Virus record (IMG/VR): IMGVR_UViG_2529292718_000021
DNA length: 13,463 nt
Origin: a virus
Taxonomy: Duplodnaviria; Heunggongvirae; Uroviricota; Caudoviricetes
Reading direction: 5' to 3' (one strand)
This document shows positions 1 to 12,980 of this stretch, in pieces. The notes beneath the pieces were generated by a model. The model was not told where the DNA came from. It was given only the letters and a program-made list of their open reading frames with translations, and ran no database searches. The stretch's first letter is position 1. Each line of letters begins with the position of its first letter. The position numbers and the translations under genes are program-made.

Positions 1-1320
1 ATGAGGTTTGGGTACATTGCTTTGGGTACACCCCCTATTCAAAGTTTGGATATTCGCAAAATGCCAAAACTAACAGACATGCAGATCCGCGCATGGATTA
101 AGAGCGGAGAGCGATTCGAGGGGCGGGCAGACGGTAACGGTTTATACCTACGTTACCGTGAAGCCGACAAAACCCCCACATGGAGATTCCGCTATAAACT
201 CGCAGGGAAGTCCCGCGCCATGCTAATTGGTTCGTATAGCGAGCTATCACTATCAAAGGCCAGAGAGACAGCCAAAGAGCTGTCAGCCAGAGTTGCTCTT
301 GGCTATGACGTAGCAGCAGAGAAACAGGAACGAAAAGCTGAAGCACTGGCAAAAATGGAGGCTGAGAAAAACGCCATGCGTGTTTCAGATCTGGCCTCCG
401 AATACTTCGAGCGCCAGATACTTCCGAGATGGAAACATCCCGATATCCTTCGCCGGAGAATTGATAAGGATATTAACCCCTGCATTGGGCATATGAAGGT
501 AGAGGACGTTAAGCCACGCCACATTGACGACATGTTGAAAGGTATCGTTGACCGAGGAGCACCAACGATAGCAACAGATGTATTCCGCTGGACACGCCGT
601 ATCTTTGACTACGGGATAAAACGCCACGCTCTGGAGATAAACCCTTGTTCAGCGTTTGAAGTATCTGATGCTGGTGGTAAAGAGGTTTCCCGCGACCGTT
701 GGCTAACTCGCGATGAGCTTATCAGGCTATTCGAGGCTATGCGCACCGCAAAAGGATTCAGCCGCCAGAACGAACTGACATTTAAGCTATTGCTGGCACT
801 ATGCGTTCGTAAGATGGAGTTATGCGCCGCACGATGGGAAGAGTTTGATTTAGATGGTGCGGTATGGCATTTGCCGGAAGAACGCAGCAAAAACGGAGAC
901 CCTATTGATATACCTCTACCTTCTCCAGCCGTTGAATGGTTGAGAGAACTACACACCTTTTCATGTAATAGCGCATGGGTGCTTCCAGCCAGGAAGATGC
1001 AAAACAGAATGATCCCACATATTCAGGAAAGCACTTTGCCCGTAGCACTGGCTAAGGTTCGCGCCGAAATGCCGGATGTGCCTAATTTCACGATTCACGA
1101 CTTCCGACGCACCGCACGTACTCATTTAGCAGCGTTGGGCGTTGATCCGGTAGTCGCAGAAAGATGCCTTAATCACAAAATTAAAGGTGTGGAGGGTATC
1201 TATAACCGTCACCAGTATTTTGATGAGCGTAAAGCGGCGCTGGCGCAGTGGTGTGATTTGCTGGTGGCACTGGAGCGCGGCGAAGAATACAACGTGACGC
1301 CTATCAGAAAGGCAAAGTAA
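1..1320 (+). CDS. int: Tyrosine recombinase / phage integrase, P4-like family. True start may be an internal ATG at 61 or 79.
   Basis: 439-codon ORF. C-terminal catalytic region carries the HDFRRT box and a conserved Tyr in GIYNRHQY, typical of tyrosine recombinases; N-terminal MQIRAWIK...GLYLRY...TWRFRY matches the arm-binding domain of P4-type integrases. Confidence 0.9.
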   Translation: MRFGYIALGTPPIQSLDIRKMPKLTDMQIRAWIKSGERFEGRADGNGLYLRYREADKTPTWRFRYKLAGKSRAMLIGSYSELSLSKARETAKELSARVALGYDVAAEKQERKAEALAKMEAEKNAMRVSDLASEYFERQILPRWKHPDILRRRIDKDINPCIGHMKVEDVKPRHIDDMLKGIVDRGAPTIATDVFRWTRRIFDYGIKRHALEINPCSAFEVSDAGGKEVSRDRWLTRDELIRLFEAMRTAKGFSRQNELTFKLLLALCVRKMELCAARWEEFDLDGAVWHLPEERSKNGDPIDIPLPSPAVEWLRELHTFSCNSAWVLPARKMQNRMIPHIQESTLPVALAKVRAEMPDVPNFTIHDFRRTARTHLAALGVDPVVAERCLNHKIKGVEGIYNRHQYFDERKAALAQWCDLLVALERGEEYNVTPIRKAK

Positions 1321-2303: not shown

Positions 2304-2332
2304 TCGCAACGAAAATCCATTTTTCGTTGCGA
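2304..2332. repeat. Perfect 12-bp inverted repeat (TCGCAACGAAAA / TTTTCGTTGCGA) with a 5-nt loop, between the cargo gene and alpA. Putative terminator or operator.
   Basis: Arms at 2304-2315 and 2321-2332 are exact reverse complements; located 8 nt after the stop of the 293-aa gene. Confidence 0.6.
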
Positions 2333-2400
2333 TGACATCTAATCCCCCTGCTCACATGATTACCGTAACTTCAACAGCTATCACAGGAGTTACAGGACAT

Positions 2401-2619
2401 ATGACAGCACATAACGCAGCGCAATCAGCACTTCCTACTACTGGATACATCCGCCGTTTTCGTATGCCGGAACTTCTGGGTGTTTCCATGCCAACCATTG
2501 ACCGCTGGGTTAAGAACGGCACGCTGCCGCGCCCAGTGAAACTCACCGATAACGTGACCGCCTTTGATGCGGTAGAGATTAATAACTGGCTGGCTGAGCG
2601 CCGGGGAAAGGTGGCGTAA
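2401..2619 (+). CDS. alpA: AlpA-family phage regulatory protein (excisionase-like HTH). Upstream in-frame starts at 2332 or 2356 are possible.
   Basis: Motif IRRFRMPELLGVSMPTIDRWVKNGTLPRPVKL...EINNWL matches the AlpA/Vis HTH pattern (E. coli AlpA: LRLPAV...TIYDWL...FPKP...W.E.EI.EWL). Position directly after int and a cargo gene is typical. Confidence 0.8.
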   Translation: MTAHNAAQSALPTTGYIRRFRMPELLGVSMPTIDRWVKNGTLPRPVKLTDNVTAFDAVEINNWLAERRGKVA

Positions 2620-3899: not shown

Positions 3900-4074
3900 G
3901 CCAACAGGAACACCACAACCACAAAAACGCTACAAAGATGCCCACGGAGCACTCGTTACTGTCGAAAGCGTGTCTCACAACCGAGTGACGTTTTATCGCG
4001 ACGGGTATCAATCGCCATGCGTACAACCGCTGGCACGTTTCATGAAGGAGTTCGCGGAGGTTAACAAATGCTAA
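3892..4074 (+). CDS. DUF4222-like small prophage protein (60 aa), start overlapping the antirepressor stop.
   Basis: Translation ...HGALVTVESVSHNRVTFYRDGYQSPCVQPLARF... fits the DUF4222 pattern as remembered; translational coupling. Confidence 0.6.
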   Translation: MSKPTGTPQPQKRYKDAHGALVTVESVSHNRVTFYRDGYQSPCVQPLARFMKEFAEVNKC

Positions 4075-4505
4075 CCGTCCAGAAGAAGACATTTTCACTG
4101 GCAGGTATGTCGCCAAAATCCAGCAATATGACGGCAAAGTCAGGCATTAATACAGCAGATACAAGCAAAGTTTATCATTTGCTGGTGGTCGGAACGGATG
4201 CCTTAACCATACCAGAAATCTCGGGCGATGATATTAGCATTGAGAAGGTCAGCGGCTGCGCCAGAAAATTTCTGGTCGTAGATGATGTCTTCCGCTCGTG
4301 TAGTGACTCCACAAAAACATTCGTCCACGTGCGTGACGTTAACGAAATGAGCGCGATGTACTGTGCATCTGGTGCTTCCAATACTGAGTTTTCGGAGTCC
4401 ATAAAAAAGAGCTTGCCGTTATGCGGCAACACGGTTTATGGTTATAAGGCACCTCATAAAACGGGTGCCGGGATTAGGACCCCGCAGGCAATCGAGGCGA
4501 TACAT

Positions 4506-4526
4506 GACGCGCCAGCGTCTTTTTTT
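4506..4526 (+). terminator. Candidate intrinsic terminator inside the immunity-like leader upstream of the Icd-like gene.
   Basis: Stem GACGC (4506-4510) / GCGTC (4515-4519), loop GCCA, followed by seven T at 4520-4526. Confidence 0.4.
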
Positions 4527-4534
4527 GTATCGGC

Positions 4535-4665
4535 GCACACGCACACCTTATCAATGGTGGGCTGTATGGGGCTGACTTCGGTCAGGCTGGTTTCCTTGAT
4601 TGCCAGTAGTCCTAACCCTGTACAGTCCACCGCCAGCGAGCTTAGGACCTCCGGCGGTGGCTATA
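4535..4665 (+). ncRNA. Candidate structured leader / antisense-RNA-type immunity element (C4/CI-like), tentative.
   Basis: UUCG-tetraloop hairpin CTGAC-TTCG-GTCAG at 4572-4585; 8-bp complementary pair CCACCGCC (4627-4634) / GGCGGTGG (4653-4660) immediately before the Icd-like RBS. In P1 and P4 the icd/immunity genes are preceded by a processed antisense RNA. Coordinates approximate. Confidence 0.25.
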
Positions 4666-4690
4666 AACCATCAATCAAGGAGGCTGCCAC

Positions 4691-4885
4691 ATGCTGGCTA
4701 CTACCCCTACCCAAAAACCGCAATTTATCTGGATTATCGCCGCAGTTCGCCGCGATTGCCCGACAATTACCGCCAAAATTCATCATATTGCTGCCGAGTC
4801 TGAACGCGATGCTCGCCGTTCTCTGGTGCGCGATCACGTCTGCTTTTTTGCTGGTCGTATCCGCATGGAGGTGGCACATGATTAA
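4691..4885 (+). CDS. icd: Host cell division inhibitor Icd-like protein (64 aa).
   Basis: Perfect SD AAGGAGG 7 nt upstream; translation QFIWIIAAVRR...ESERDARRSLV..FFAGRI fits the Icd-like pattern (F.W...A.RR...ARR.L...FAAR) as remembered. Confidence 0.75.
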   Translation: MLATTPTQKPQFIWIIAAVRRDCPTITAKIHHIAAESERDARRSLVRDHVCFFAGRIRMEVAHD

Positions 4886-5096
4886 AACCTACGATGTGCA
4901 TATGGATCCCCTCGAACGCACAAGCCAGATCATCACACTGACAGAAGTGATTAACGACATTCTGGTGAGCAACTCTCCCTCACGAGACGAAAGACTGAAG
5001 GCGTTACTCGCGATATTGGATCTCGCCGTTCGTGACGTTCATTTCCTGCTGGAAGGTGGCGAAATGCCAGTAAAAACGGGGGCAACCAATGAATAA
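4878..5096 (+). CDS. Hypothetical small protein (72 aa), overlapping the icd stop by 8 nt.
   Basis: SD GGAGGTGG upstream of ATG 4878; helical, protein-like translation. Confidence 0.6.
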   Translation: MIKTYDVHMDPLERTSQIITLTEVINDILVSNSPSRDERLKALLAILDLAVRDVHFLLEGGEMPVKTGATNE

Positions 5097-5283
5097 CTCA
5101 ATTAATACCCCTCGCCTTACGTCCGCACTTCAATTAATCGAGCAAGCAGCGGCTGTCCTGGTTGCTGTCAGTCTTTCGGCTGAAGAAATGGACGCTGCTG
5201 ATGTCGTGGATGCGATTAAAGCGTGCTCATCTTTGGTTAACGATGCCCGTGCAGAGCTGGTAATTCTTGGTGGTGAAAAATGA
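5089..5283 (+). CDS. Hypothetical small protein (64 aa), translationally coupled.
   Basis: Start overlaps the preceding stop; G-rich SD-like tract upstream. Confidence 0.6.
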   Translation: MNNSINTPRLTSALQLIEQAAAVLVAVSLSAEEMDAADVVDAIKACSSLVNDARAELVILGGEK

Positions 5284-5543
5284 ATATCAACTTAATTTAT
5301 CGTCATCCGTGTGAGCTGGAAATTGAATCATTGCTGGGGCGTGAAGAGCCATATCCAGACACATTTACTCCCGCAGATTGCGCGACTGAACGGCTTACCA
5401 GAGCGCGCACAGGTCTGGTTCATGTGATGAATGAGATTATTCCCTCGGTGGGAGGGGAACAGGCGACAGTAATCAATAGCTGGCTACAAAAAGTTACCTC
5501 CCTGATAGATATCAGTTTAATCGATGTGGAGAGTGCGAAATGA
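5280..5543 (+). CDS. Hypothetical small protein (87 aa), ATGA start/stop overlap.
   Basis: SD GGTGGTG upstream; coupled to neighbours. Confidence 0.65.
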   Translation: MNINLIYRHPCELEIESLLGREEPYPDTFTPADCATERLTRARTGLVHVMNEIIPSVGGEQATVINSWLQKVTSLIDISLIDVESAK

Positions 5544-5761
5544 CCAACATCCAGCTCATTGAAGCGCAATGTCGCATCGAACAGGTTCAGACTGTTTTAG
5601 GGTTCTGGCTTGAAGGGGCCGGCTCAAGCAACAGAGACAAGTTAATGATTGGCGCGGTTATGTCACTACTCAATGGCGTACCAGAAGCTATTCAGGAAGC
5701 GGACGAATTGTTGGGCAAATATGAGTTACAGAATCATTCAGGCGAGGCGAAACATGAATAA
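5540..5761 (+). CDS. Hypothetical small protein (73 aa), ATGA overlap.
   Basis: SD GGAGAG upstream; coupled to neighbours. Confidence 0.65.
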   Translation: MTNIQLIEAQCRIEQVQTVLGFWLEGAGSSNRDKLMIGAVMSLLNGVPEAIQEADELLGKYELQNHSGEAKHE

Positions 5762-5839
5762 TTTCTTAACTTTCCATGCAGAAGCAACGCCTGACGGCGT
5801 AAACATCATGTATGGCAGCAGAAATCAGAGAGGTAAAAC

Positions 5840-6577
5840 ATGAACAATAACTATTGCATACTGCAGGGAATGACCAGAACGGAGCGCGAAGAATTAAAAA
5901 GTTTCGCTACACAGTGCGGGAATGCTGGCGACATCCAAAGTCTGGAACGCACTTTAATTATGATTGCGCACTGGATGCGCCAGGGGCAAAGAGTTTCATT
6001 TACTGAATATGCCAGCCAGTGGACAGAGGCACAGCGCGAACGGAGCGACGGTAATCACTCAACACCCGAAATGGCGAAGCAATGGCCTTTCAGTGGTAAA
6101 CGCTGTATCAGTCCCGGTGGTTCAGATTATTACCCTGCTGGTGTGGGAGATGAGCCATGTTGTGACGAGACTGAAATCCGCCACGCAGTGACAGTAATTA
6201 CCGCTGAATACCCACAATTTAACCTTGACGGACTGGCGCTCCACAACCGGAATGCGGACTGGGAAAACCCGCTTGATAACCCGTCATTTATCGTATCGGC
6301 GAAAAGCTGCCTGAGATGGATCAGAGACAACGGGATGAGTAATGCCCAGATTGAGAGCTTCCCGCAGGATAACCCCACATCTGACACGTTGAAGCATGAA
6401 GTGGAGCGATATAACCAGATAAACCACCAGCACAGTGATCACCCGCACTATATCCCCAACGGAGCATTTATTGCGGCGATGGTGGCAAGCGGCTACAAGG
6501 TTAAGCCAGCGGGAAGAATGAACGCATTTTTCAATATTTCAAAAAAGGGATTATGTGCTGCTATGGGTAAAAATTAA
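5840..6577 (+). CDS. Hypothetical protein (245 aa), last gene of the small-gene operon; sits immediately upstream of an iteron-like repeat cluster.
   Basis: SD GAGAGGT upstream; long ORF; family not recognised by eye. Confidence 0.75.
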   Translation: MNNNYCILQGMTRTEREELKSFATQCGNAGDIQSLERTLIMIAHWMRQGQRVSFTEYASQWTEAQRERSDGNHSTPEMAKQWPFSGKRCISPGGSDYYPAGVGDEPCCDETEIRHAVTVITAEYPQFNLDGLALHNRNADWENPLDNPSFIVSAKSCLRWIRDNGMSNAQIESFPQDNPTSDTLKHEVERYNQINHQHSDHPHYIPNGAFIAAMVASGYKVKPAGRMNAFFNISKKGLCAAMGKN

Positions 6578-6582
6578 ATAAA

Positions 6583-6686
6583 TGGTACAGGTCTGTACAG
6601 GTGGGGAGAGGTCATTTTTACCCACCTGTACCACCTGCAGGCCGCGCCACACAAGGGTTTGTGACATGGTGGTACAGGTGGTACAG
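6583..6686. repeat. Iteron-like cluster of GGTACAGG(TGG) motifs in direct and inverted orientation; candidate origin or operator array.
   Basis: Copies at 6584-6591, 6594-6604, 6622-6631 (inverted, CCACCTGTAC), a degenerate one at 6633-6641, and 6671-6686 (two overlapping). All in non-coding DNA just after the 245-aa gene stop. Confidence 0.6.
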
Positions 6687-6840
6687 CAAAAACAGCGATT
6701 TTCTTTATAAGGTATGTTTTGCTCATCTGGCAGACGGAGGTATTCGCTGCGGTTTGGCACATAGCCCAGAACAGCAAAGAGTTTTACGAGACTTTTGTAA
6801 AATCCAGTGTACAAGGGCGTGACGTTTTTGAAGGTGAGCA

Positions 6841-6857
6841 CTACGAAATTTTCGTAG
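6841..6857. repeat. Perfect palindrome CTACGAAA-T-TTTCGTAG; candidate protein-binding site.
   Basis: 8-bp arms are exact reverse complements, read directly. Confidence 0.5.
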
Positions 6858-7051
6858 TTCAAAAAATAGCCTCTGAGATGTTGTTATGCCTGTTCAGCAA
6901 ACCATCCGCATAGCTGATCGCGAATCAAATTACCAATGGAGCCAGAAGCAAGGGCAGAACTGGAAAGCGCCTGCCGTGAAGAGTAATGCGACTCCATAAA
7001 TATAGTTTTTAGAGTCCATAAAAAAACTGTCAAAACCTGACATACAGAACG

Positions 7052-7084
7052 ATGCCACCAGCTACTGAACGGTGGCATTTTTTT
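7052..7084 (+). terminator. Rho-independent terminator.
   Basis: 8-bp stem ATGCCACC (7052-7059) / GGTGGCAT (7071-7078), 11-nt loop, followed by a T-run at 7079-7084. Confidence 0.7.
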
Positions 7085-7117
7085 GTGCTATTTGTTTCAT
7101 ATTTTGCAATCACAATG

Positions 7118-7146
7118 ATGAATGTTGCGTTTTATGAAACTATAAT
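7118..7146 (+). promoter_or_regulatory. Candidate sigma70 promoter for the RHH/447-aa/705-aa operon: consensus -10 TATAAT at 7141-7146 with a weak -35.
   Basis: Perfect TATAAT hexamer about 35 nt upstream of the ATG at 7181; strong SD AAGGGGGG at 7169-7176; directly downstream of a terminator. Confidence 0.35.
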
Positions 7147-7180
7147 GACTGTTGTTTTATACAGTTCTAAGGGGGGCGTT

Positions 7181-7354
7181 ATGGCTATTTCAGTAAAGCC
7201 AGTATTGATAAGTGAGAAGCAAATGGAAGCGATAAAGAAAATTCAGGAGGAGCAGCGTAAAAAATCAGAGGTAGGAGTTGCGCCAACGATCCACGAAATT
7301 GCTCGGGGATTAATGGATAAGGCGCTGGCTTACACTTTAACTGGACGTGGGTAA
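7181..7354 (+). CDS. Small protein (57 aa), putative ribbon-helix-helix-like DNA-binding protein; first gene of the operon.
   Basis: Strong RBS; N-terminal beta-strand-then-helix pattern (ISVKPVLISEKQMEAIKKI) is consistent with an RHH fold. Fold assignment is a guess. Confidence 0.55.
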   Translation: MAISVKPVLISEKQMEAIKKIQEEQRKKSEVGVAPTIHEIARGLMDKALAYTLTGRG

Positions 7355-7358
7355 ATTT

Positions 7359-8702
7359 ATGGCTACGTGGCAACAGGGTATTAATTCTGGTGGTTTTCTG
7401 GCTGGCATCGGTGCGCAAAATGAGAATGCGCCAAAGGCAAGCGACATTAACGCAACGCTTGGTCTGATCCGCGAAAACAATGAACTGGCTCGCTCAGGTG
7501 CAAATAACGTTGCTCTGACAGGTCTTCGTGGTCTGGCTGGAGTTGCTGACATTTATAAGCAGCAGCAACAGCAGGAACGTAAAGCGGCATTCCAGAAAGG
7601 TTATGCAGATGCTTATGCGTCCGGTGACAGGGAGCAGATGCGTAATCTTATTACAGCATTCCCAGAAGAGTTTGAGGAAGTCCGTAAAGGGATGAGTTAT
7701 GTCGATGATGCTCAAAGGGATGATTATGGCAATCTGGCGCTCAAAGCACAGGTAGCCTCATCGCTTGGTCAGGGCGCATTTGGCAGGTTCATGATGGATA
7801 ATGAGCAGGAGATGCGTCGTTTAGGTATCCCTCCAGAAACTATTGCTGAAATGCAGGTTAATGACCCGCAGGGCTTCCAGCATTTCGCAGGTAATCTGGC
7901 GCTGTTTTCTCTCGGTCATGAGAAGTATTTCGATATCAAAGATCAAATGGAAGGTCGTCGACTTGAGCAAGGGCGACTGGATGAAAGTATGCGTCAGGCT
8001 GACATGGAGAACGCGAGAGGATGGGCAAATATCCAGAACGCTCAACTAGACAGGGCTCAGCGAGCACAAATTCACTCAGATGAGATGGGATTGAAGCTAA
8101 TGGAGCTGGGGCAAAAAGGTAAGCCGTCAGCAGACTTAATTAAGGGATTAAATTCTGACATTACCAATTTTGGCAAAAATTATAACTCTGTCAGAGCGGC
8201 GGCAAACTCTCTGCAAGCCCTTAGCAAGGTAAATACTGGCGCTGCCCAACTTGGGATTATCTTCAACTACATGAAATCTCTTGACCCGCAGTCAGTCGTT
8301 CGTGAAGGCGAACAGGTTCAGGTAATGCGGTCTGATGGCATATGGGGACAAATCAAAGGATACATAGACCAGCTTAATGCTGGAAACGGCCTGTCGCAGG
8401 AGGCAAAGGATAACATTGTTAACGCCGCAAAAATCAACGCCAATGCTATGGGGCAGCAGTTTAACCAGCAGGTTGACGAGTATCTCGATACATATGGAGA
8501 AACTATTCCTCAGGGGCTAAGAAAAAGCCTTGAAAGAAGGAAAGCGAAGCTATTTGACGATGTTTCCGGGCAGCCTACATCACAGGCTGGCACTGGACAG
8601 GCAAAAGCGGCAACCGGAGGAATATCAGAAGGCGCAACGGCAACCAACCCTAAAACTGGTCAGAAAATCATTTACAGGAACGGAAAATGGCAGCAAATGT
8701 AA
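7359..8702 (+). CDS. Large hypothetical protein (447 aa from ATG 7359; 451 aa if GTG 7347 is used). Gln/Asn/Ala/Gly-rich, predicted coiled-coil, no catalytic motif seen.
   Basis: Long ORF; poly-Q tract (QQQQQ); no Walker A, no HxH or other enzymatic signature by eye. Confidence 0.8.
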   Translation: MATWQQGINSGGFLAGIGAQNENAPKASDINATLGLIRENNELARSGANNVALTGLRGLAGVADIYKQQQQQERKAAFQKGYADAYASGDREQMRNLITAFPEEFEEVRKGMSYVDDAQRDDYGNLALKAQVASSLGQGAFGRFMMDNEQEMRRLGIPPETIAEMQVNDPQGFQHFAGNLALFSLGHEKYFDIKDQMEGRRLEQGRLDESMRQADMENARGWANIQNAQLDRAQRAQIHSDEMGLKLMELGQKGKPSADLIKGLNSDITNFGKNYNSVRAAANSLQALSKVNTGAAQLGIIFNYMKSLDPQSVVREGEQVQVMRSDGIWGQIKGYIDQLNAGNGLSQEAKDNIVNAAKINANAMGQQFNQQVDEYLDTYGETIPQGLRKSLERRKAKLFDDVSGQPTSQAGTGQAKAATGGISEGATATNPKTGQKIIYRNGKWQQM

Positions 8703-10804
8703 TCTTACCGGAAGGTTTTGTGCTCGATGAACAACCTGATAACTCACAGTTTCCTGATAGTTCACAGCTTCCTGATGGTTTTGTGCTTGATGCCCAACCA
8801 GAACAGCAGCAATCACCTTTGGTTTCACCAGAGGAAAATTCCAGACAGGAAAATGTTGTTAATAATGCTAACGGTTTCGACCGTTTTATGTATGGCGTTC
8901 TCAGTGGATTGATGGATGTTGGTAAAGGTGTTGGCCTGTTTCAGGATATGACACCAGAAGAGCAAGCCGCAATTCAGTCTCTACAGCAGAAGTTAGCGGC
9001 AAAACCATCAACCGCACAAGATGTTGGTGAGTTCGTTGGACAAGCAGCGCCATTTGTTAGTGGTGGTGGGATTATTTCTCAGGTTCCCAAAGGGGCGGCA
9101 AGACTGGCTGCCGCCGCAGGGCTTGGGGCTGGAGAAGGGGCTATTGTAGCCAATGGAACAAATAGCGATGTTGCTTCCGGCGCTGCTATTGGCGCTGTGG
9201 CTGGCCCTGTAGCCGAACTTGCTGGCCCTGCAATTAATAAAATAGCTGGGAAATTAACCAAGAAGAATGTTTCTTCGATTCCAGATATTGAGGGGATTAC
9301 TCCTACCGAAGAGAAAATTCGTAAGTTATCTGCACAAGGCAACCCAAATCTTGCCTCTTCGCTTGAAGGGCTAGATCTAAAACCTCAGAAAGAAATTGTT
9401 GAGGCTGCAAATAGGCTTCATGTTGATTCAGTTCTTCCTTCTCATTTATCAGGAAATGAGCAATACCAAGCTGTAGAGCAAGCCCTAAAGTCACGGACAG
9501 GATCAGCGTTAAAAGCTCAAGAAGATAAAGCAATAAGCGAATTAGCCTCTAGTGCTGGCAAGATAATCGATGATGTTGCTGGTGCGCCAGATGCGTTAGC
9601 TATGAGCGAAAAATATATTTATCAGATAAATAGTAGAATGGAAGCACTAAAAAACCGTAGTGATCAGTTATATAAACGTGTTGATTCCGCTCTATCACCA
9701 AGAACAAAAGTCGAAGCAAATAACACAAGCACTATGCTGGAAAAAATCGCTGATGATTTAGGAGGGTGGGATAATCTTGACCCAATAGAAAAGCGAGTTT
9801 TTACAGCAATAAACCCCGGCCCAGATAGCATCCTAACGTATGCAAATTTAAACAGGCAAAGGCGTTTAGTTGGTGATGCCCTAAATAAAAAGCAGGGGCC
9901 ATACAAAGATGCTGATAAAGAAGCGCTATCAAGACTATATGGAGCTTTAGCTGAAGACCAAAAATCTGTCTTATCCAATACTGGATACTTGCGAGATTTC
10001 GAAGTCGCACAACGCCTTGTAGCTATGAGAAAAAACTTAGAAAGGCAAATGGTAAATCTTCGCGGGAAAACACTTAATGGGGATATAGCGTATAAAGTAA
10101 CGAATTCTCTTCAATCTATGGCAAAAGGTGATGCGAGAGGGTTTCGTGAGATTATGCAAAATACTCCATCAAGAACATTGCGAAGGGAGCTAGTAGGAAC
10201 AGCATTAAGAGATATGCTTTCCTCTGGGAAGCGTGGGGCCGACTTTAATCCATCTGGCTTTGCAGATTGGTGGCAAAACTTGCAACACAGTGGACAGCTA
10301 AAGACTTTGGCTGAACATTTGCCAAAAGAAACAATGAGCGGACTATATGATGTATACAAAGTTGCCAGAGCAATAAAAAATGCTAAAGCGCATGAAATAT
10401 CTACTGGTAAGCTGAATGAGTTTGTAAACAGATTTAATCGGGTAACAGCTCCATACGAACTAGCAGCAAAACACATTCAAAAAATAGGCACGATGGTACG
10501 CGCTCATTTTGGATCGCTTGGAGCCATTGCTGGGGCTGATATTGGAGCAAGATTGGCGAGTAAAGCTCGATTAGCTGGTGGAGCAGGGGCGGCTGATGCT
10601 GCGGATAAATTAATTGCCTCGCCAGCCTTCCAGAGCGCAGTAAAAAATCTACACGGAAAAGCGCCTGGGCACATTGTTGATTCACGTATCAGGCGCTCCC
10701 CTCAATGGAAGAGTTTTTTTAACTCTCTTCCTGAACAGGAAAAACGGACCATCGCCAGACTGGGCATCATTACTTGGCTATCTAATGATCCAGATAATGA
10801 CTAG
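8687..10804 (+). CDS. Large hypothetical protein (705 aa), start overlapping the upstream gene by 16 nt. Has an N-terminal tandem peptide repeat and Gly/Ala-zipper-like segments; the gene is compositionally mosaic.
   Basis: Repeat LPEGFVLDEQP / LPDGFVLDAQP (DNA repeat GGTTTTGTGCT[C/T]GATG at 8714-8729 and 8777-8792, 63-bp period); segments such as AAAAGLGAGEGAIVANG and GSLGAIAGADIGARLA; the 5' third is near backbone GC while the 3' ~1.5 kb is clearly AT-richer. Confidence 0.85.
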   Translation: MAANVILPEGFVLDEQPDNSQFPDSSQLPDGFVLDAQPEQQQSPLVSPEENSRQENVVNNANGFDRFMYGVLSGLMDVGKGVGLFQDMTPEEQAAIQSLQQKLAAKPSTAQDVGEFVGQAAPFVSGGGIISQVPKGAARLAAAAGLGAGEGAIVANGTNSDVASGAAIGAVAGPVAELAGPAINKIAGKLTKKNVSSIPDIEGITPTEEKIRKLSAQGNPNLASSLEGLDLKPQKEIVEAANRLHVDSVLPSHLSGNEQYQAVEQALKSRTGSALKAQEDKAISELASSAGKIIDDVAGAPDALAMSEKYIYQINSRMEALKNRSDQLYKRVDSALSPRTKVEANNTSTMLEKIADDLGGWDNLDPIEKRVFTAINPGPDSILTYANLNRQRRLVGDALNKKQGPYKDADKEALSRLYGALAEDQKSVLSNTGYLRDFEVAQRLVAMRKNLERQMVNLRGKTLNGDIAYKVTNSLQSMAKGDARGFREIMQNTPSRTLRRELVGTALRDMLSSGKRGADFNPSGFADWWQNLQHSGQLKTLAEHLPKETMSGLYDVYKVARAIKNAKAHEISTGKLNEFVNRFNRVTAPYELAAKHIQKIGTMVRAHFGSLGAIAGADIGARLASKARLAGGAGAADAADKLIASPAFQSAVKNLHGKAPGHIVDSRIRRSPQWKSFFNSLPEQEKRTIARLGIITWLSNDPDND

Positions 10805-12475: not shown

Positions 12476-12541
12476 AACACTGTTATACGCTCAAATATCA
12501 GCCAGAAAATAACGGACCAATCACAAATCTATCGCTGTGTT

Positions 12542-12592
12542 GTTGGTTCAGAGCTGGGCTGTGTTGGTTCAAAATGAGTTGATGTTGGTTCA
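12542..12592. repeat. Three direct GTTGGTTCA iterons spaced exactly 21 bp apart.
   Basis: Copies at 12542-12550, 12563-12571 and 12584-12592. Confidence 0.7.
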
Positions 12593-12635
12593 ATATTTCA
12601 GAAAAAACACAATAAAAACAACAATCTTTACAAAT

Positions 12636-12662
12636 TGAACCAACTGAACCAACTGAACCAAC
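12636..12662. repeat. Three tandem TGAACCAAC 9-mers (reverse complement of the upstream iterons), separated from them by an AT-rich spacer and overlapping the -35 region of the perC-like gene.
   Basis: Copies at 12636-12644, 12645-12653 and 12654-12662; AT-rich 12593-12635. Confidence 0.7.
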
Positions 12663-12685
12663 ACCTTTTTGCTTATCTATATAAT
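12654..12685 (+). promoter_or_regulatory. Candidate promoter of the PerC-like gene: consensus -10 TATAAT at 12680-12685, -35 embedded in the last TGAACCAAC repeat.
   Basis: TATAAT hexamer 14 nt upstream of the ATG at 12699, SD GAGAGG in between; non-canonical spacer. Confidence 0.35.
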
Positions 12686-12698
12686 CTGAGAGGCAGAA

Positions 12699-12980
12699 AT
12701 GATAAGGGACAGGAAAGCTGAAGAGCTGGAGTCAAAAGGGCTATACCGGAGAGCTGCCGCACGATGGATGGAAGTCATGCTGTTATGCACCGAGGACGAT
12801 GATCGGGAATGGATAAAGCGCCGCCGTGAAACGTGTCTGGAGAACGTGAAGCGCCCGCCCGTGAAGGTTGAGGAATTTGGCGACCTGCATAAAGCTGTTA
12901 CCGAAACGCAACACCGCATGGGGATAGCGCAACCGAACGGTAACGCCTTCCGGTTAAATGGCGGCAAGAGGCAAAGGTAG
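12699..12980 (+). CDS. perC: PerC-family transcriptional activator (93 aa).
   Basis: N-terminal MIRDRKAEELESKGLYRRAAARWMEVM matches the conserved PerC/Pch N-terminus as remembered. Confidence 0.8.
   Translation: MIRDRKAEELESKGLYRRAAARWMEVMLLCTEDDDREWIKRRRETCLENVKRPPVKVEEFGDLHKAVTETQHRMGIAQPNGNAFRLNGGKRQR

Follow-up and report, generated by a model that had tools for sequence, protein, structure and literature searches.

The intergenic gap of an Escherichia coli chromosomal island begins with a cluster of short repeats, array B, which together with its A+T-rich flank is read here as one of the two arrays of a bipartite replication origin of the P4/PICI type. According to this reading, to which we assign a probability of about 0.8, the partner array (array A) and the replicase gene have been deleted, and the remainder of the gap consists of a gene relic and a terminator. 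Because a deletion private to the window (the whole stretch of 13,463 nucleotides analysed) took both the replicase gene and array A, array B is most likely an orphan half-origin which is unable to fire alone. The feature is probably a relic, that is, a half-origin without function in a Gram-negative phage-inducible chromosomal island (PICI). From sequence comparison and by analogy with related satellites, we infer that the array would act as part of an origin and that the copy in the window has lost this function.

The island and the two modules of the gap

The window is a Gram-negative PICI located between yicC and dinD. It carries int at the left end, alpA, unidirectional transcription with all genes on the plus strand, a pri-rep-ori module and a dedicated attC site, the pri-rep gene of the module being deleted in this copy (Table 1). 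In complete genomes, near-identical islands sit between yicC and dinD, a site listed as attC of the Gram-negative PICI EcCIRM13514 (Fillol-Salom et al., 2018; PMC6092414). The att core of EcCIRM13514, GAGCAGATTCAA, was not found in L002, the best match to the window. Neither terS nor capsid genes were detected in the window by Pfam, no replicase gene is encoded there and a tRNA scan found no tRNA gene. An Rfam search of positions 6300–7400 returned a sole match at chance level (E = 0.16) and nothing credible. Pfam and PHROGs searches with the 245-aa, 76-aa and 57-aa proteins gave nothing informative.

Table 1. Coordinates of features in the window.
Feature	Position	Strand	Remarks
P4-type tyrosine integrase gene	1–1320	+	
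AlpA-like regulator gene	2332–2619	+	
AntA, DUF4222 and Ash genes and several small genes		+	
Junction of the 3267-bp deletion	5810..5811		
245-aa gene	5840–6577	+	Accessory protein, winged-helix-like C-terminal domain
Array B	6583..6687	both	Six TGGTACAGG-type sites; putative right origin half
Iteron 1	6583–6591	+	TGGTACAGG
Iteron 2	6593–6601	+	cTGTACAGG, one mismatch
Iteron 3	6603–6611	+	Degenerate, GGGGAGAGG; at the place of the third repeat of P4 ori
Iteron 4	6625–6633	−	TGGTACAGG
G+C-rich spacer	6634..6669		36% A+T; contains GCCGCGCCA at 6641–6649
Iterons 5 and 6	6670–6687	+	Tandem doublet TGGTACAGG-TGGTACAGC
A+T-rich flank	6688..6727		70% A+T; AAAAACAGCGATTTTCTTTATAAGG...
Module junction	6777..6778		Replicon cassette to the left, backbone to the right
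Relic of phage antirepressor-like gene	6778..6999	+	N-terminally truncated, frameshifted; remnants ...EFYETFVKSSVQGRDVFEGEHYEIFVVQK and DVVMPVQQTIRIADRES...KSNATP (then stop) in two frames
Perfect palindrome	6841..6857		CTACGAAATTTTCGTAG (CTACGAAA-T-TTTCGTAG); codons CAC TAC GAA ATT TTC GTA G of (E)HYEIFVV
Hairpin 1	6986–7019	+	GACTC/GAGTC; holds GACTCCATAAA and GAGTCCATAAA
Hairpin 2	7028–7042	+	Inverted repeat TGTCA-AAACC-TGACA
Intrinsic terminator	7050..7087	+	GATGCCACC...GGTGGCATT + T7; fold z = −5.6
57-aa (RHH) gene	7181–7354	+	
P22-like ejection-protein genes	7347–10804	+	

A previous reading of the sequence without database searches (the sequence-only reading) had described positions 6583–7050 as a single repeat-dense region of about 470 bp without a convincing gene. 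The absence of a gene is borne out by identical RefSeq copies, which annotate none, and the open reading frames of the gap (6551–6862 and 6884–7078 on the minus strand, 6719–6913 and 6886–6999 on the plus strand) gave nothing informative with Pfam and PHROGs. Every repeat is present at the place given, but the repeats belong to two unrelated modules joined at 6777/6778 rather than to one repeat-dense unit. Of the 5426 complete E. coli genomes searched, 128 contained positions 6560–6777 and about 525 contained positions 6778–7180, the latter group including islands with a 918-aa TOPRIM/DUF927 replicase.

For the left module, at least five copies of GGTACAGG in both orientations within about 105 bp had been listed, and three exact copies and two with one mismatch were indeed found within 104 bp. 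With position 6584, where the GGTACAGG core of iteron 1 starts, taken as zero, the sites lie at 0, +10, +20 (degenerate), 41 (opposite strand), +87 and +96. The 13.4-kb window contains no exact copies other than these three, which fall in 6584–6678. With one mismatch allowed, the whole window contains 17 matches versus 5.8 ± 2.6 in shuffled sequences, and 0 of 200 shuffles reached 17. In array B, the 7-mer GGTACAG occurs in four non-overlapping copies within ~104 bp, and it forms no second cluster elsewhere in the window; of 500 Markov simulations, just 2 produced a 7-mer of any kind with four copies within 110 bp. An iteron of 8–9 bp is thus present at least five times, in both orientations and within about 100 bp, beyond chance. 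Among the repeats listed for the gap, only this cluster is significant by itself, and the interpretation as an origin-type repeat array is supported for this cluster, the geometry of which matches P4 and PICI origins (see below). The CAAAAAnnGCGATTTTCTTTAT stretch following the doublet is conserved in Raoultella, Pantoea, Salmonella and Methylobacter.

The right module has a different content. Positions 6818–6927 match residues 45–84 of the anti-repressor of Klebsiella phage ZX1 (tblastn, E = 1.75e-5) in two frames with a stop between them, and the tail of the relic, up to the TAA at 6997–6999, corresponds to the C-terminal end of a 152-aa ORF that is intact in a related island (L004). The perfect palindrome lies within this relic. 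The exact 22-mer containing it was found, nearly always in one reading frame, in at least 80 IMG/VR contigs, a set chosen by exact match and therefore uninformative on synonymous-site constraint. The 22-mer is part of the conserved peptide ...NDFxARxKDELEGEHYExFVV..., and its flanks show 3-nt periodic conservation. We therefore rejected the palindrome as an independent DNA element, as it is in frame within a conserved protein motif with codon-periodic flanks. The direct repeats (6990–7000 and 7012–7022) match at 10 of 11 positions. They are held by hairpin 1, the stem of which is broken in strain 83972 (GACAC), so that there is no sign of selection on its structure. Neither the palindrome nor the two-copy repeats are significant individually, and the two small hairpins are incidental. 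The strong terminator noticed at the end of the gap was confirmed; it ends the upstream replication operon, and analogous terminators occupy the same place before the 57-aa gene in three other islands (L006, L007 and L010). Although present as listed, the palindrome, the two direct repeats and the inverted TGTCA/TGACA repeat, which had been counted towards an origin, an operator or a packaging signal, belong to the separate backbone module, in which nothing ties any element to replication.

The deleted replicase and its association with the iteron

In comparison with L002 (99% identity), the window is without L002 positions 7322–10588. This 3267-bp segment comprises most of a 200-aa gene, the whole gene for a 783-aa primase-helicase, array A and most of the 76-aa gene. 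The deletion is private to the window, its junction being found in 0 of 5426 complete E. coli genomes. The replicase gene is present in every full-length relative examined and located about 1.1 kb upstream of array B. Array A lies directly 3′ of the replicase stop codon (L002 10252–10354) and is built from the same motif; in the full-length relatives L001 and L002, its orientation mirrors that of array B. An A+T-rich spacer sits in array A and was deleted from the window with it, and the window is thus devoid of both a cognate primase-helicase gene and a second array in cis. The sequence-only reading had found no primase or replicase and had considered the initiator unidentified or supplied in trans. 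Absence from the window holds true and is due to the deletion, but the protein can be identified as the 783-aa Zn-ribbon/Toprim/DUF5906 protein of the full-length relatives.

By Pfam, the 783-aa protein contains Zn_Ribbon_Prim, Toprim_3 and DUF5906 domains, with no D5_N or Pox_D5. Its AlphaFold2 model (mean pLDDT 83.7) gave fold comparison values of 23.8 with the NrS-1 SF3 helicase, 17.5 with the SaPI5 primase-helicase, 15.6 with a T7 primase fragment, 14.8 with vaccinia D5, 12.0 with PriRep1 bound to dsDNA and 8.0 with the C-terminal winged-helix domain of Cdt1. The predicted secondary structure of the C-terminus is winged-helix-like, the last 80 residues being modelled as strand-helix-helix-hairpin. 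Both SaPI Rep proteins (PMC9371898) and P4 alpha (PMC2777425) recognize iterons via a C-terminal winged helix. The replicase C-terminus showed no significant match to the P4 origin-binding domain (hhalign probability 0.1), and a profile search of PDB sequences with it did not recover 1ka8. Since the sequence match to the P4 domain is not significant, iteron binding by the C-terminal domain is only suggested, by the modelled fold and the analogy with P4 and SaPI.

In intact relatives, a P4-alpha-like protein combining a Zn-ribbon/Toprim primase, an SF3 helicase and a winged-helix-like C-terminus is encoded just upstream of the array. As modelled on P4 alpha at ori/crr and SaPI Rep at SaPI origins, this protein would bind the 9-bp TGGTACAGG sites at arrays B and A via its C-terminal domain. 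The bound replicase might then load itself as a helicase, melt the adjacent A+T-rich DNA and prime synthesis.

Sequence comparisons indicate that the iteron goes together with the replicase's helicase/C-terminal half, and with neither the 245-aa protein nor the primase domain. Up to about residue 340, a stretch that covers the primase domain, replicases of the DUF5906 and DUF927 types have 86% identity; beyond it they are unrelated. The DNA directly 3′ of the DUF927 replicase contains three copies of GTTGGTTCA, an A+T-rich stretch and three copies of TGAACCAAC, and the sister TOPRIM/DUF927 islands match the backbone from window position 6778 onward. As the replicases diverge after about residue 340 and are followed by different arrays, the swapped cassette extends from the helicase/C-terminal half to window position 6777. 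One primase domain is naturally fused to three different helicase/C-terminal modules. The window also contains a second orphan array, the GTTGGTTCA array of a DUF927-type replicon, at 12538–12665.

The 245-aa gene, which the sequence-only reading had placed as rep in a rep-then-ori layout typical of satellites, does not have this role, although the layout as such is correct. A homologue (67% identity) adjoins an AAA_25 helicase in L006 and L007, where the repeats are AAGTGGGGAG and no GGTACAG cluster is found. Conversely, TGGTACAG arrays occur without any 245-aa homologue in loci from Pantoea, Xenorhabdus, Methylococcales and Glaciecola. This double dissociation ruled out the 245-aa protein as initiator. 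A search of PDB sequences with the protein gave no match; having a winged-helix-like domain as well, it may have a co-binding role.

The association of iteron and replicase covers 20 loci from seven genera. One genome per species was scanned with the C-terminal half of the replicase, which yielded 13 loci, and three more were obtained by protein look-ups. TGGTACAG arrays A and B, with orientation and spacing kept, recur in Raoultella, Salmonella, Pantoea, six Xenorhabdus species, Citrobacter, Methylobacter, Methylomonas and Glaciecola, and the arrangement is kept down to 42% replicase identity. The architecture of the array is conserved across three orders of Gammaproteobacteria while the spacers diverge (72% identity in iteron columns versus 45% in other columns). 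The distance between the arrays is variable: they are contiguous in Citrobacter (L031), about 0.3 kb apart and flanking the 76-aa gene in Xenorhabdus, 1.06 kb apart in E. coli and Salmonella, and 5–7 kb apart (maximum ~6.8 kb) in L009/L013, L010 and L018. Other branches of the replicase family have other iterons (TGGAACAG in L021, TCTAACCCA in L030), and the arrays are missing or degenerate in L017 (a short contig) and L020. Physical linkage of the cassette, rather than function, could explain part of the association.

Alternative readings of the array

Array B could still be a working origin or cis site and not a vestige, if it were driven in trans by the replicase of a co-resident sibling island. 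We regard this as unlikely, even though array B is 100% identical to the copy in intact islands and some genomes hold two to three copies of the gap region. P4 requires both ori and crr in cis, and array A is deleted here. The A+T-rich spacer lost with array A is regarded as the melting site of PICI origins (PMC6092414); on the other hand, a PICI origin can be driven by a primase in trans (PMC11338833). A further, improbable reading is that the orphan TGGTACAGG and GTTGGTTCA arrays have been kept as decoy or handcuffing sites which titrate the replicases of sibling satellites, whether incoming or co-resident (satellite-satellite incompatibility), or for hitch-hiking on the replicase of a sibling.

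It is very unlikely that the array is a multi-site transcriptional operator, bound by the 245-aa winged-helix protein, AlpA or the 57-aa RHH protein and controlling the neighbouring operons. The array does lie between two operons, the 245-aa protein has a winged-helix-like domain, and plasmid iterons can serve also as autoregulatory sites. However, the distribution of the iteron does not coincide with that of the 245-aa family, and the winged-helix motif of this family is also kept in islands whose iterons are unrelated. A scan of positions 5700–7500 revealed no sigma-70-like promoter, and the terminator stands between the array and the downstream operon. A distinct conserved dyad at 7094–7146, beyond the region for which an operator had been suggested, abuts the TATAAT of the downstream operon and is a better candidate for a multi-site operator than the repeats of 6583–7050.

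The suggestion of a packaging signal (pac or cos) for the terminase of a helper phage, which we consider remote, draws on the helper cos sites carried by E. coli PICIs (PMC6092414) and on the P22-like ejection proteins of the island, which suggest a pac-type helper. No lambda-type cosN was detected in the window (search at chance level), the motif changes with the replicase cassette and not with the morphogenetic genes, and the sites are arranged as in P4 and PICI origins; nothing supports the suggestion. That the whole 470 bp are decayed, non-functional DNA with repeats arising by chance or as relics has a negligible probability. The pseudogene relic and the individually non-significant two-copy repeats of the right module agree with such decay, but the iteron array is far beyond chance, and the comparative data, with the array architecture conserved in three orders of Gammaproteobacteria while spacers diverge, contradict it for 6583–6687.

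Comparison with P4, PICI, SaPI and plasmid origins

Each origin was scanned with its own iteron, and positions were expressed relative to the doublet. The sites of array B are then at −87, −77, −67, −46 (inverted), 0 and +9, the type-1 repeats of P4 ori as annotated in NC_001609 at −86, −76, −65, −43 (inverted), 0 and +10, and the sites in the right half of the EcCIRM13514 origin at −85, −76, −65, −44 (inverted), 0 and +8. Counted from the first site, P4 ori has offsets of 0, 10, 21, 43 (inverted), 86 and 96. Array B shows the same geometry, in which three direct sites and one inverted site precede a direct doublet that lies some 86 bp away from site one. In the right half of the EcCICFT073 origin, this plan recurs with looser spacing (0, 11, 31 (inverted), 79, 88), and array A is matched by the left halves of the EcCIRM13514 and EcCICFT073 origins. 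Replication driven by the pri-ori segment of EcCICFT073 has been demonstrated experimentally (PMC6092414; PMC11338833). The sequence GCCGCGCCA is common to array B, the EcCICFT073 right half and Citrobacter array B, despite their differing iterons. Because geometry and GCCGCGCCA are shared while the iterons differ, the scaffold appears to be homologous, with the iterons re-specified.

The element is of a known kind, in which TGGTACAGG represents a new iteron allele and the arrays have a split arrangement. The pair of TGGTACAGG and a DUF5906-only replicase was not found described in the papers searched, where the iteron string gave unrelated primer matches only; Figure 2a of Fillol-Salom et al. 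(2018) may show the pair. The analysis assigns defined parts to an unannotated 600-bp gap that more than 500 E. coli genomes carry, and points to a new specificity pair of TGGTACAGG with a DUF5906-only alpha-like primase-helicase. P4 ori/crr and the PICI origins follow one architectural plan, with halves that are contiguous or kilobases apart, and satellites swap replicon cassettes (the helicase/origin-binding half plus the proximal array) at fixed junctions, leaving orphan arrays behind. Orthogonal primase-ori pairs from PICIs already serve as conditional replicons in payloads delivered by phage (PMC11338833), and the full-length allele would add another pair.

The closest resemblance is to P4. 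Site number, spacing and orientation of array B agree with P4 ori within 1–3 bp, and both systems have two cis arrays whose separation varies (between 0 and 6.8 kb here; 4.7 kb between ori and crr in P4). The replicase has the domain order of P4 alpha (Zn_Ribbon_Prim, Toprim_3, DUF5906 SF3 helicase), a similar length (783 versus 777 aa) and a primase domain which is 33% identical. In contrast to P4 alpha, it has no detectable D5_N or Pox_D5 domains, and the helicase and C-terminal halves are without significant sequence similarity. The iteron is TGGTACAGG instead of the type-1 repeat TGTTCACC of P4, the spacer of array B is G+C-rich, and the island is a PICI lacking sid, psu, delta and cos, not a P4-like satellite.

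With EcCICFT073 and EcCIRM13514, the island shares its type (int, alpA, unidirectional operons, pri-rep then ori, perC) and the two-half plan of the origin, and with EcCIRM13514 also the attC site yicC-dinD. It differs from both in the replicase, theirs being 584–607-aa D5_N-DUF5906-Pox_D5 proteins, and in the iteron, which is GGTAGACA in EcCICFT073 and the P4 repeat TGTTCACC in EcCIRM13514. Their halves are contiguous, whereas here they are split by the 76-aa and 245-aa genes, and only one half is kept in the window. Among published Pri-Rep alleles, no match was found in a comparison covering EcCICFT073, EcCIRM13514, ATCC 25922 and IHE3034, all with the other, 584–607-aa type.

SaPI origins likewise have iterons 3′ of rep in both orientations with flanking A+T-rich DNA, and they too rely on an SF3-type helicase as initiator, with a winged helix at its C-terminus. 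They are found in Gram-positive hosts, have iterons of 5–6 bp and another array geometry, and the primase of PriRep5 is of another type. In the theta plasmids RK2, F and pPS10, a plasmid-encoded initiator also binds short repeats beside an A+T-rich region. However, their iterons are direct repeats of 17–22 bp, no fused primase-helicase is present, and the winged-helix Rep initiators recruit DnaB and DnaG of the host.

Mosaic replicases and a putative orphan array

The replicases have one conserved Zn-ribbon/Toprim primase domain in common (76–100% identity), and the helicase/C-terminal module fused to it comes in three unrelated types: DUF5906 only, DUF927, or D5_N-DUF5906-Pox_D5. This was found by comparing the replicase genes of L002, a full-length relative (7870–10221), and L003, another island (4062–6818), together with protein matches P0030–P0149. 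Replicases with this domain are mosaics, with a recombination junction fixed near residue 340.

Besides array B, the probable iteron half-origin, the window contains a second origin-like array, whose iteron is the one that goes with replicases of the TOPRIM/DUF927 type. The three copies of GTTGGTTCA have a spacing of 21 bp and are followed by a 43 bp spacer (81% A+T) and, as the third part, three copies of TGAACCAAC in 9-bp tandem. A replicase of the TOPRIM/DUF927 type is absent from the window. A PerC-like ORF (12699–12980) lies just downstream of the array. A search of 5426 E. coli genomes located the array in 553 of them, at a median of two places each; the island L004 has two copies, one proximal and one distal. 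We read the array in the window as an orphan distal (crr-like) array, the remnant of a replicon-cassette swap.

Coordinates of features in the window and in the related island L003
Feature	Position	Description
Junction of private deletion	window 5810/5811	3267 bp lost
Conserved dyad	window 7094–7146	GTTTCATAttTTGCAAT + gTTGCgttTTATGAAAC, upstream of 57-aa RHH-like gene
P22-like DNA-ejection protein genes of PICI	window 7347–10804; L003 7581–11925	
Second origin-like array	window 12538–12665	GTTGGTTCA x3, A+T-rich spacer, TGAACCAAC x3

Deletion junction and arrays in relatives

The deletion, which created a 29-codon fusion ORF, shows little or no microhomology at its junction (...aaacatcatg/tatggcagcag...). 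A search of 5426 complete E. coli genomes did not find this junction.

In Xenorhabdus ehlersii (L009 826–921; L013 3693–3788), about 4.9 kb separate array B from its mirror-image partner, array A, which lies on the upstream side. Array A falls within what is called as the 5' end of a gene of the Ash family, which suggests that the annotated start of this gene was placed too far upstream. The Salmonella relative L032 carries 12 tandem copies of the 8-bp unit GCAAGGCT (14459–14550), which have no relation to the origin.

The 57-aa gene and the ejection proteins

Directly beside the dyad is a perfect TATAAT. The dyad is kept 5' of homologues of the 57-aa gene in islands of E. coli, Raoultella, Pantoea and Xenorhabdus, and is likely the operator and promoter of the operon in which the 57-aa gene and the ejection-protein genes lie.

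The ejection block includes a 451-aa Inj_translocase (gp20-like) protein and a 705-aa DNA-transfer-protein-like protein. In relatives the block is fuller, with DUF2824, a 217-aa protein and both an ejection and an injection protein. Ejection proteins of its own are unusual for a satellite. The helper suggested by this block is P22-like.
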